Below, piece after piece: positions 55,218 through 58,799 of a stretch of DNA of 64,000 nucleotides. Made by a program: the position numbers and the translations under genes. This DNA comes from Escherichia coli (lineage in GTDB: Bacteria; Pseudomonadota; Gammaproteobacteria; Enterobacterales; Enterobacteriaceae). How positions within the stretch are numbered: the first letter of the stretch is position 1; each line of letters begins with the position of its first letter. The stretch is taken from NCBI RefSeq assembly GCF_041248615.1, contig NZ_CP158426.1. One strand, 5' to 3'. The notes under the pieces are model-generated. The model was given only the letters and a program-made list of their open reading frames with translations, was not told where the DNA came from and did not search any database.

Positions 55218-55271
55218 TGAGCCGCCCCGGGAATCCTGGAGACTAAACTCCCTGAGAAAGAGGTAAACAGA

Positions 55272-55598
55272 ATGACTAAAAATACTCGTTTTTCCCCCGA
55301 AGTCCGTCAGAGGGCGATTCGTATGGTTCTGGAAAGTCAGGGCGAATATGACTCACAGTGGGCGGCAATTTGTTCCATTGCCCCAAAGATTGGCTGTACA
55401 CCGGAGACTCTGCGTGTCTGGGTGCGCCAGCATGAGCGGGATACCGGAGGCGGTGATGGCGGGCTCACCACCGCTGAACGTCAGCGTCTGAAAGAGCTGG
55501 AACGTGAAAATCGTGAACTGCGCCGCAGTAACGATATCCTTCGCCAGGCTTCCGCTTATTTTGCGAAGGTGGAGTTCGACCGCCTCTGGAAAAAGTGA
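55272..55598 (+). CDS. IS3-family transposase OrfA (IS629/IS1203-like)
   Basis: 108 aa, [51 protein letters not shown]; HTH plus leucine zipper. Confidence 0.85.
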
Positions 55599-56012
55599 TG
55601 CCACTGCTGGATAAGCTGCGTAAGCTGTACGGGGTCGGACCGGTATGCAGTGAACTACATATTGCCCCGTCAACGTATTACCACTGTCAGCAACAGCGAC
55701 ATCATCCTGATAAACGCAGTGCCCGTGCGCAGCGCGATGACTGGCTGAAGAAAGAGATACTGCGCGTATACGATGGGAATCATCAGGTATACGGTGTGCG
55801 TAAAGTCTGGCGTCAGTTGTTACGGGAAGGAATCAGGGTAGCCAGATGTACAGTGGCGCGCCTCATGGCGGTTATGGGACTTGCCGGTGTTCTCCGGGGT
55901 AAAAAGGTCCGCACTACCGTCAGCCGGAAAGCCGTTGCCGCAGGCGACCGCGTAAACCGTCAGTTTGTGGCAGAACGTCCTGACCAGTTGTGGGTGGCTG
56001 ATTTTACTTACG
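55595..56012 (+). CDS. IS3-family transposase OrfB, 5' exon (interrupted by group II intron)
   Basis: Frame runs to …[10 protein letters not shown] then meets GTGTG at 56013; the ORF-track continuation [15 protein letters not shown] is intron read-through. Confidence 0.65.
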
Positions 56013-58282
56013 GTGTGCCCGGAGTTCAGGGCGGGCATGGATGCTTAAATGAACCGCGAGTCTGTCTGGAATATTGAACCGGTAACTCACGATGAGAAAC
56101 CCAACAATCCCACCGGGTGTGACGGTGGAGAACCTGAGCGGCAGTGACCTGCGGCATGCCCGCAGGGTGATGTAACCCGCTGACAACGGGGATTGAGGCG
56201 AGATCACTAAGCCGAGATGATCCTCAAGGTTAAGTACTGAAAGGCTGAAGAACATGAACCCGTTAATCCGCCTCTGTGGGTTGAAAACGTCACCACGGCC
56301 TACGTGATCTGACAGGCCGTGCAGGAGGAACTGGCAGTGATACGTAAGCACTGCCGGTCGAAGGTGTTTTGACATGTATGCGAAACACCGGGGCAGCAGC
56401 GTCTATCACGCTTGCATTGCTGACTTCTGCCAACTTGCGGCAAGCAAGGATAAAGAGTGCGACGGGCAGCCTCCTCAGTATGCCTGAGTCCAGGCCGGTA
56501 AACCGGGGAAGGTCAGCGACGGATGTTAAGGGGGCATGGCTCCGATGACGCGCTGGCTGGCGGAGCTTCCGTAGTAGTCCGCGATGGGGAAAGCCCATTA
56601 CATGGCGAAGGGAAGCAGTTTGAATGTGTTTGCGACGTGAATTAACTGACCTAACGAGGTGAAGACCTTTGATAATCAGCGAAATGCAACGCAAGCTTGC
56701 CACATGGGCAGCCACCGATCCGTCCCTACGGATTCAACGGCTACTGCGTCTGATAACACAACCAGAATGGCTGGCTGAAGCGGCGCGGATCACGCTTTCA
56801 TCAAAGGGGGCCCATACCCCCGGCGTTGATGGCGTGAACAAAACAATGCTACAGGCCAGACTGGCTGTTGAGCTGCAAATCCTCAGGGATGAATTACTCT
56901 CAGGCCACTACCAGCCCTTGCCCGCCAGACGGGTTTACATCCCTAAAAGCAACGGCAAACTGCGACCACTGGGTATCCCCGCGTTGCGGGATCGTATTGT
57001 TCAGCGGGCCATGCTGATGGCGATGGAGCCGATATGGGAGAGTGATTTTCATACGCTCTCATATGGCTTCCGGCCTGAGAGCAGTGTCCACCACGCGATC
57101 CGCACGGTGAAATTACAGCTCACAGACTGTGGTGAAACCCGGGGACGCTGGGTGATTGAAGGCGACCTGTCCAGTTACTTCGACACCGTACATCATCGAC
57201 TGCTGATGAAGGCTGTACGCCGCAGGATCAGTGACGCACGTTTCATGACTCTGCTGTGGAAAACCATCAAGGCGGGACATATCGATGTCGGTCTCTTTCG
57301 GGCGGCCAGTGAAGGTGTGCCACAGGGCGGTGTTATATCGCCGCTATTATCGAACATCATGCTGAATGAGTTCGATCAATACCTGCATGAGCGCTACCTG
57401 AGCGGGAAAGCCAGAAAAGATCAGTGGTACTGGAATAACAGTATCCAACGGGGCCGAAGTACGGCGGTCAGAGAAAACTGGCAGTGGAAACCCGCGGTGG
57501 CGTACTGCCGCTATGCCGATGATTTTGTCCTCATCGTCAAAGGCACCAAAGCACAGGCGGAAGCCATCAGGGAGGAGTGTCGGGGTGTGCTCGAAGGCAG
57601 TCTGAAACTCAGGCTGAACATGGATAAGACTAAAATCACCCATGTTAATGACGGCTTTATCTTTCTGGGGCACAGGATCATTCGCAAACGCAGTCGTTAT
57701 GGCGAGATGCGAGTGGTCTCAACGATCCCGCAGGAGAAAGCCAGAAACTTCGCCGCATCGCTGACAGCACTGTTATCAGGCAACTACAGTGAAAGCAAAG
57801 TCGATATGGCTGAACAACTCAACCGAAAACTGAAAGGCTGGGCCATGTTCTATCAGTTCGTTGATTTTAAGGCCAAAGTCTTCAGTTATATCGACCGTGT
57901 CGTGTTCTGGAAGCTGGCTCACTGGCTGGCCCGCAAATACCGTACAGGTATCGCTTCCCTGATGAGGTGGTGGTGTAAATCACCGAAACCGGGTCAGAGC
58001 AAAACGTGGGTTTTATTTGGTAAAACCAATCACGGCAAGCTCAGCGGCGAAATACTGTACCGGTTGGTGGGGCAAGGCAAGAAGCTGTTCCGCTGGCGGC
58101 TACCCGAAGGTAATCCCTATCTGAGGACGGAGACCAGAAACACGTATACATCGCGCTTTACAGAAGTGGCAATGGCGTTCGCCAGCATTTAAATGGAGAG
58201 CCGGATGCGCTGAAAGGTGCACGTCCGGTTCGGGGAGGAGAGGCAGGGAAATAGTCCGACTACGCCCTGCCTCTTACTCTAC
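56013..58282 (+). mobile_element. bacterial group II intron (about 2.27 kb) with RT/maturase ORF in domain IV; boundaries approximate
   Basis: 5' GTGTGCCCGGAG (GUGYG); domain IV lead-in CGTAGTAGTC…TTACATGGCGAAGGG before the ORF; domain V GAGCCGGATGCGCTGAAAGGTGCACGTCCGGTTC after the ORF stop; 3' end …CTAC; splicing at these points restores a continuous OrfB frame (…[20 protein letters not shown]…). Confidence 0.75.
56669..58192 (+). CDS. group II intron-encoded reverse transcriptase / maturase
   Basis: 507 aa; RT motifs including YADDFV (RT5) and the maturase X domain. Confidence 0.88.
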   Translation: MIISEMQRKLATWAATDPSLRIQRLLRLITQPEWLAEAARITLSSKGAHTPGVDGVNKTMLQARLAVELQILRDELLSGHYQPLPARRVYIPKSNGKLRPLGIPALRDRIVQRAMLMAMEPIWESDFHTLSYGFRPESSVHHAIRTVKLQLTDCGETRGRWVIEGDLSSYFDTVHHRLLMKAVRRRISDARFMTLLWKTIKAGHIDVGLFRAASEGVPQGGVISPLLSNIMLNEFDQYLHERYLSGKARKDQWYWNNSIQRGRSTAVRENWQWKPAVAYCRYADDFVLIVKGTKAQAEAIREECRGVLEGSLKLRLNMDKTKITHVNDGFIFLGHRIIRKRSRYGEMRVVSTIPQEKARNFAASLTALLSGNYSESKVDMAEQLNRKLKGWAMFYQFVDFKAKVFSYIDRVVFWKLAHWLARKYRTGIASLMRWWCKSPKPGQSKTWVLFGKTNHGKLSGEILYRLVGQGKKLFRWRLPEGNPYLRTETRNTYTSRFTEVAMAFASI

Positions 58283-58761
58283 TCTGGACGGGTAAGCGCT
58301 GGGCGTACCTCGCCGTTGTTCTCGACCTGTTCGCAAGAAAACCAGTGGGCTGGGCCATGTCGTTCTCGCCGGACAGCAGGCTCACCATGAAATCGCTGGA
58401 AATGGCATGGGAAACCCGTGGTAAGCCCGGCGGGGTGATGTTCCACAGCGATCAGGGCAGTCATTATACGAGCAGGCAGTTCCGGCAGTTATTGTGGCGA
58501 TACCAGATCAGGCAGAGTATGAGCCGGCGCGGAAATTGCTGGGATAACAGCCCAATGGAACGCTTCTTCAGAAGTCTGAAGAACGAATGGGTGCCGGCGA
58601 CGGGCTATGTAAGCTTCAGCGATGCAGCTCACGCAATAACGGACTATATCGTTGGATATTACAGCGCACAAAGACCGCACGAATATAACGGTGGGTTACC
58701 GCCAAACGAATCAGAAAACCGATACTGGAAAAACTCTAACGCGGTGGCCAGTTTTTGTTGA
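58283..58761 (+). CDS. IS3-family transposase OrfB, 3' exon (IS911-like)
   Basis: …[73 protein letters not shown]…[24 protein letters not shown]; DDE region of the IS3 family. Confidence 0.65.
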
Positions 58762-58799
58762 CCACTTCAGTGGGTGGTGGTGTTAAGAGCATGCGGTCT

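Follow-up and report, generated by a model that had tools for sequence, protein, structure and literature searches.

The window analysed here is a 64,000-nt stretch of the Escherichia coli chromosome (RefSeq assembly GCF_041248615.1, contig NZ_CP158426.1), and all coordinates refer to it unless another locus is named. At positions 55218-58769 it carries a 3552-bp structure in which a group II intron, E.c.I4, interrupts a transposase gene of the IS3 family of insertion sequences (ISs), next to a truncated copy of the IS256-family element IS1414. An earlier note on this DNA, drawn from the sequence alone, had read the arrangement as an intron inside an IS3-family element that had itself cut an IS256-family gene, and alignments bear out each of these three layers. 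The same note had proposed that the IS3-family host is a composite, IS629-like upstream of the intron and IS911-like downstream. The features of the locus, with the evidence on which each was placed, are as follows.

54391-55217, minus strand: remnant of IS1414 (IS256 family), from alignment to intact IS1414 and RefSeq annotation
55218-56012, plus strand: 5' exon (exon 1), the IS629-like left 795 bp, from alignment to annotated IS629 positions 1-795
55218-~55242, plus strand: left inverted repeat of the 5' exon
55272-55598, plus strand: orfA
55553-55669, plus strand: ALIL pseudoknot in the orfA/orfB overlap (Rfam RF01497, 111.7 bits against a gathering score of 50)
55595-56012, plus strand: first 139 codons of orfB, including the first catalytic Asp in ...ADFTY
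56013-58282, plus strand: group II intron E.c.I4, class A, 2270 nt, GUGUG...CUAC, from near-identity to a published copy and empty-site comparison
56343-56348, plus strand: candidate exon-binding site 1 (EBS1) CGUAAG, intron positions 331-336, predicted by complementarity scan and minimum-free-energy fold
56669-58192, plus strand: reverse transcriptase/maturase open reading frame (ORF) in domain IV, an open frame of 507 codons from the TTG at 56669
58196-58282, plus strand: intron domains V-VI (Rfam RF00029, 64.9 bits against a gathering score of 40), ending on the 3' boundary
58283-58769, plus strand: 3' exon (exon 2), the IS911/ISEc52-family right 487 bp, from alignments to ISEc52, IS911 and IS629

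A chimeric IS3-family host beside an IS1414 remnant

Alignment of the two exons to IS629, IS911 and ISEc52 revealed no single IS that matches both. Exon 1 is 95.6% identical to the 5' part of IS629, as opposed to 49.6% to that of ISEc52, and its nearest copies (99.5%) lie on pUTI89-type plasmids. Exon 2, in contrast, shares 97.1% identity with ISEc52 and 96.1% with IS911, but only 49.4% with the 3' part of IS629. The composite nature of the host is thus confirmed, as are the family names given to its halves, except that exon 2 lies slightly nearer to ISEc52 than to IS911 proper. RefSeq labels the composite and its intron only as two ‘incomplete IS3 family transposase’ pseudogenes and ltrA.

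The intron occupies its usual homing site in orfB, three codons past the first catalytic Asp, and splits the gene after ...ADFTY. Joining position 56012 to 58283 in silico yields a continuous OrfB (...WVADFTY/VWTGKRW...), as the earlier note had anticipated, in which the catalytic residues are D (ADFTY), D (HSDQGS) and E (SPMERFF); all of this DDE triad but the first Asp resides in the C-terminal 160 codons of orfB, within exon 2. Judging from this reconstruction, a spliced transcript would encode a chimeric transposase. Each half, taken separately, shows the hallmarks of the IS3 family, with element ends TGA... and ...TCA and overlapping orfA and orfB. In IS3-family elements, the ALIL pseudoknot stimulates programmed -1 frameshifting.

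We considered whether the host might be one intact IS629 or IS911/ISEc52 element and rejected this. The right inverted repeat ends ...CCACTTCA at 58769, and the left and right terminal repeats agree at only 12 of 25 positions, as compared to 22 for IS629 and 19 for ISEc52. The triplets flanking the composite, ACC on the left and GTG on the right, do not form a target-site duplication. These properties identify two half-elements, and the mismatched ends together with the chimeric transposase probably render the host IS immobile.

Within exon 2, the six IS911/ISEc52-family variants compared at first have the same opening 100 bp (58283-58382), and the other 387 bp differ by 1.6-7%. Such invariance might be due to selection acting on the DDE core, or to homogenisation beside the intron. 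The exon 2 of the window resembles a mosaic of IS911-family variants.

To its left, the composite meets IS1414 at base resolution. Positions 54391-55218 align with an intact IS1414 copy (locus L014, 1592-2419) at 97.7% over 828 bp. IS1414 ends at 55217, and position 55218 corresponds to the first base of the left inverted repeat annotated for IS629 in phage VT2-Sakai; the IS256-family gene is therefore cut exactly at the IS3-family repeat, as had been claimed. What remains is the 3' 63% of the element (827 of ~1315 bp), comprising one terminal end and the C-terminal part of the transposase, whose reading frame is uninterrupted from 54425. The truncation has cost the gene its N-terminal ~416 bp and the element its second end, such that the full-length 402-aa transposase is no longer encoded, and RefSeq accordingly names the remnant ‘IS256-like element IS1414 family transposase, missing N-terminus’.

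Out of frame within this remnant, and spared by the truncation, sits an intact astA ORF of 38 codons (54802-54918, minus strand; MPSTQYIRRPASSYASCIWCATACASCHGRTTRPSLAT), which encodes the EAST1 heat-stable enterotoxin. The association of astA with intact or degraded IS1414 is already known (PMC12585946). IS1414 was also found to host related insertions elsewhere: at locus L015 (3991-5300), an uninterrupted IS629-like element lies in IS1414, 3 bp from the point corresponding to 55217/55218 and with a GTA duplication, and several other genomes carry IS629-like insertions in IS1414 tens of bp away. The part of IS1414 around the insertion point looks like a preferred target of IS629.

The 3552-bp structure recurs as 100% identical copies in complete genomes from many independent assemblies. 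Its right junction was present in 47 genomes. On these grounds, it is not an assembly artefact.

The group II intron E.c.I4 and its encoded protein

The interrupting sequence is one copy of a known E. coli retroelement at its usual target site. Relative to E.c.I4-26 of pUTI89 (NC_007941:30449-32719), we counted 7 mismatches over 2616 bp (99.73% identity) spanning part of exon 1 and the whole intron, with the published E.c.I4-26 interval containing one extra 3' base. Identity to E.c.I4-3a of strain 55989 is 99.6%, and a 985-bp intron fragment on pRS218 is likewise 99.6% identical to the window; that fragment agrees in length and position with E.c.I4-tr3, published for the near-identical plasmid pUTI89. 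Coordinates of the named copies were taken from Leclercq & Cordaux 2012 (PMC3522654). The E.c.I4 protein has been classified as a class A intron ORF and grouped among ORFs without a recognizable DNA-binding/endonuclease (D/En) region (PMC3552965).

Uninterrupted IS629 aligns up to 56012 and uninterrupted ISEc52 from 58283, which places the 2270-bp intron to the base. Since both ends are set by these empty-site alignments, the boundaries are independent of any fold. They also agree with the consensus splice boundaries (5' GUGYG, 3' AY).

Secondary-structure support is confined to parts of the ribozyme. Besides the domain V-VI match, minimum-free-energy folds place a bulged branch-point A in domain VI at 58276, 7 nt from the 3' splice site. 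The candidate EBS1 occupies the loop (9 nt) of a hairpin with a 10-bp stem (intron positions 318-346) and pairs 6/6 by Watson-Crick with CUUACG (56007-56012), the last six bases of exon 1, which form intron-binding site 1 (IBS1); the ISEc52 5' exon offers only 4/6 of these pairs. A candidate EBS2 (intron positions 274-282) pairs 9/9 with the IS911-type site at locus L005 and 7/9 with the exon of the window, with the standard ISEc52 site pairing less fully than that of L005; this candidate is base-paired in the minimum-free-energy fold. As regards the remaining domains, an Rfam search at E ≤ 1 matched only domain V and no domain I-IV family, and minimum-free-energy folds of the ORF-deleted intron recovered domains V, VI and the EBS1 hairpin, but no reliable wheel of domains I-IV. 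The six-domain fold proposed as a check in the earlier note is thus directly supported for domains V-VI and the EBS1 hairpin only, and we assume domains I-IV from identity to the curated intron. The exon contacts expected for splicing all appear to be kept, as the IS629-like exon supplies IBS1 and the 3' exon starts with TC in both IS types.

The intron-encoded protein is intact as an ORF. RefSeq starts it at the ATG at 56684, giving 502 aa (WP_001189119.1). Pfam identified RVT_1 at residues 91-337 (E 8e-34) and GIIM at residues 361-426 (E 1e-10) and nothing further, specifically no endonuclease domain, consistent with its class. The YADD motif is intact at residue 282, and the best solved homologue is LtrA (E 1.7e-51).

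Two substitutions set the protein of the window apart: it carries S138 and Q252 where E.c.I4-26, E.c.I4-3a and the L005 copy have Arg (R138S and R252Q, with codons at 57080 and 57423). Residue 138 aligns with the Arg of the GFRPxR motif, which is invariant in the three solved group II reverse transcriptases aligned there (LtrA, GsI-IIC RT and 7uim). Using a 41-bp probe centred on the change, we located the S138 allele at 151 sites across 146 genomes, the median genome holding one copy; this allele has not multiplied within genomes. It was seen in at least three IS contexts, which could stem from retrohoming or from gene conversion between copies. The earlier note had taken the intact ORF as a hint that the intron may still be mobile. 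This is only partly supported: the frame is open and the motifs are preserved, but a conserved Arg is replaced, and the allele is essentially single-copy per genome.

In a sister copy at the same island locus (L004, 5296-7565), the intron ORF is interrupted by a W34* stop. The same W34* allele was observed on a plasmid of strain GZEC065, inside another IS629-like element that is flanked by a CCT duplication (L019, 3954-6223), and the chromosome of GZEC065 carries the right junction of the L004 type. The presence of one allele in two ISs of a single strain suggests gene conversion between intron copies or mobilisation in trans.

Origin of the chimeric element

E.c.I4 has been reported to insert at specific sites within the IS629, IS911, ISEc16 and ISEc31 transposases, and intron/IS tandems of >3 kb have been argued to be especially prone to rearrangement (PMC3522654). 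For the chimeric host, the earlier note had left the choice between homologous recombination of intron copies resident in different IS3-family hosts and retrohoming into a hybrid IS. We consider it highly probable that the chimera arose by homologous recombination between E.c.I4-bearing IS copies. This explanation is favoured because both parents exist, no empty hybrid was found, the chimeras lack target-site duplications, and one left half occurs with several right halves; the mismatched terminal repeats described above point in the same direction. With IS629 and ISEc52 sharing just ~49% identity, no long stretch of homology other than the intron was available to join the two halves.

Both parental types were recovered with introns near-identical or identical to that of the window. 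A pure ISEc52 copy on pYLPI24a (L020) carries an intron identical at 2270/2270 positions, and its exon 2 matches that of the L004-type chimera in all 470 alignment columns compared. Target-site duplications separate the two classes of element. Duplications were absent from 4/4 chimeric copies examined (window, L013, L004 and strain 55989), whereas single-parent copies at L020, L019, L015, L007 and L009 are flanked by 3-4 bp duplications, with none at L003. These duplications read GTA for the intron-bearing ISEc52 on pYLPI24a and CCT for the intron-bearing IS629-like element on pTEM1-GZEC065, and GTA, CTTT and ATG for intron-less copies.

We envisage the following course of events. E.c.I4 would have retrohomed separately into IS629-like and IS911-family copies, a step borne out by the existence of both single-parent types, each with its own target-site duplication. 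Before the join, the IS629-like element would have transposed into IS1414. The two intron-bearing copies would then have recombined through their 2.27-kb near-identical introns, such that the left half of one became joined to the right half of the other, while the IS629 right half, the rest of IS1414 and the intervening DNA would have been removed or replaced. Further exchanges at the same joint would have generated the several right-hand arrangements in the tRNA-Ile-ended island; the pattern itself is observed, and its direction of change would follow from this scheme.

Three observations weigh against recombination between intron copies or restrict what can be said about it, besides the dependence of domains I-IV on identity to the curated intron. 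First, sequence variation does not place the crossover: copies of the intron are distinguished by only 0-12 sites, and every IS911-family variant compared shares the opening 100 bp of exon 2, so we infer a crossover inside the intron rather than observe it. The exact ancestor, a full IS629-like element at the same IS1414 position followed by the rest of IS1414, was not found. A query composed of the IS629 right end, ACC and the rest of IS1414 was covered in nine genomes, continuously in two of them, and both continuous matches were rejected as independent insertions: one is the element 3 bp off with GTA, and the other lies at the position equivalent to L014 2431, without IS1414 on its left. 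Lastly, no donor was found that combines the exon 2 variant of the window with its right flank.

A different order of events, in which an IS629/IS911 hybrid IS formed first and E.c.I4 subsequently retrohomed into the preserved site, would have had a valid target to work with, given that the junction retains the IS629-type 5' site with perfect IBS1 and the TC shared at the 3' exon start. Yet, a query with the spliced hybrid returned no single-piece intron-less copy in 5,426 complete E. coli genomes; a 1351-bp match in two pieces (H125) was dismissed, as it represents ISEc52 beside an IS629-like element in the opposite order rather than a hybrid. With ~49% identity between the parents, such a hybrid would moreover require illegitimate recombination at exactly the base of the intron site. 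It would also have to account for chimeras with mismatched ends and without target-site duplications, and for chimeras of different exon variants at different loci. We regard this route as very unlikely. Co-conversion, whereby intron RNA from an IS629 donor invades an IS911-family target and the donor's 5' exon is copied in during cDNA synthesis or repair, finds some resonance at L005 (2171-2230). In this IS911-family host, the ~10 bases before the intron read NTTACTTATA, nearer to the IS629 sequence TTTACTTACG than to GTGACCTATA of ISEc52, and could be a short conversion tract or a natural IS911 variant. In the chimera, however, IS629-like sequence spans all 795 bp to the IS629 left inverted repeat and then abuts IS1414, no IS911-family 5' remnant is present upstream of exon 1 in the window, and neither a new IS end nor a new flank is expected from a conversion tract, leaving co-conversion scarcely credible as the source.

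A third scenario, that the chimera formed once and its right half later varied through exchanges within the IS911-family 3' halves, for instance in the invariant 100 bp of exon 2, is a real possibility, albeit one to which we give somewhat less than even weight. It accommodates the identity of the window and L013 introns, whose surroundings first differ at 58383 in exon 2, as well as the mosaic appearance of the window's exon 2. It fits the right-half differences and not the primary IS629-IS911 join, for which there is no usable homology outside the intron. For that join, recombination between intron-bearing copies remains the preferred reading.

Precedent exists for both the chimera and its parents. 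Table S2 of PMC3522654 records for E.c.I4-3a of strain 55989 that ‘the IS host is a chimeric IS629/IS911’, and lists a chimeric IS629/ISEc31 host in IAI39. The 55989 copy, located in the SHI-1 island, resembles that of the window in its 795-bp IS629-type left part, its E.c.I4 intron, its 487-bp IS911-type right part and the absence of a target-site duplication. Unlike the window copy, it is flanked by a type VI secretion gene and pic rather than sitting in IS1414 within the tRNA-Ile island, and its exon variants are 94.2% and 96.1% identical to those of the window. It most likely represents an independent recombination event, and since it occupies another locus with different exon variants, such chimeras probably form repeatedly.

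Among single-parent relatives, E.c.I4-26 (pUTI89) and the pTEM1-GZEC065 copy share with the window the intron (99.7-99.8%), the 5' homing site ending in ...GATTTTACTTACG and a related IS629-like 5' exon; they differ in that both exons are IS629-type, and the GZEC065 copy has its CCT duplication. E.c.I4 copies in ISEc52 (on pYLPI24a and in a chromosomal copy near hchA) share the IS911/ISEc52-family 3' exon but have an ISEc52 5' exon with its incomplete EBS1-IBS1 pairing, and GTA as the duplication. The chromosomal copy near hchA was observed at L018 (4101-7720), split by the IS4-family element IS421. Counted by junction, the IS911-type 5' junction (that of ISEc52 with E.c.I4) occurred in 1,144 of 5,426 complete genomes, the IS911-type 3' junction in 918, and IS629-type exon 1 with intron in ~1,311. 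Being made per genome, these counts do not show which 5' exon belongs with which 3' exon in a given copy, and we claim no chimera frequency from them. The general principle, that introns homing into ISs turn into long dispersed repeats and so promote rearrangement, also links the locus to ectopic recombination at repeated group II introns of Wolbachia (Leclercq et al. 2011) and to IS-targeting introns such as RmInt1, both as cited in PMC3522654, though these are different introns in different hosts.

Right-half variation in the tRNA-Ile-ended island

According to the annotation of NZ_CP042969.1, the structure lies within a ~50-kb genomic island that extends from a tyrosine recombinase gene beside nfeF to a tRNA-Ile gene beside mug. 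Sugar-utilisation genes (alpha-galactosidase, MFS transporter, GH32 hydrolase, kinase and porin) are found to the left of the structure, and an L-lactate permease gene, dld, lutABC homologues, a type I restriction-modification system and Ag43 to its right.

Compared across genomes, the island shows a constant left side and a variable right side. The IS1414-IS629 left junction was detected in 205 genomes, as compared to 47 for the right junction of the window. A second right junction (L004-type), beside a different hsdM, was present in 36 genomes. A third arrangement, L013, is devoid of the lactate module; its intron is identical to that of the window, its exon 2 is 99.4% identical to ISEc52, and it first diverges from the window at 58383, inside exon 2. 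Some crossovers in later exchanges may have fallen outside the intron, in the conserved first part of exon 2. In sum, a fixed left half (sugar-utilisation genes, IS1414 remnant, IS629-like part and intron) is fused to at least three right halves, namely the lactate-utilisation module and two different restriction-modification contexts. We tentatively propose that E.c.I4-bearing IS copies serve as a portable recombination joint that repeatedly swaps cargo modules in this tRNA-Ile-ended island.

Two further repeats were noted in the vicinity. Palindromic repeats resembling REP (repetitive extragenic palindromic) sequences, with motifs of the GCCGGATG...CATCCGGC type, occupy ~58820-58940, in the gap that separates the IS from the lactate permease gene on its right. 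About 11 kb leftward in the same island, at ~42830-44060 on the minus strand, lies another IS3-family element, part of which is 96% identical to a stretch of L008 annotated as a truncated IS2-family transposase; it had no BLAST match to the exons or the intron.

The locus is a further instance of a documented phenomenon, combining a known intron, known hosts and a known type of chimera, and it leaves existing knowledge of group II introns and IS elements unchanged. What it adds is an example, resolved to the base, of how a retroelement that homes into related ISs provides long dispersed repeats that can fuse unrelated IS halves and reshuffle the adjacent DNA. The chimera is useful for annotation and as a marker for tracing variants of the island. 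If the proposed role of intron-bearing ISs as a portable joint holds true, the group II intron would actively drive the mosaicism of the island besides being carried along in it.

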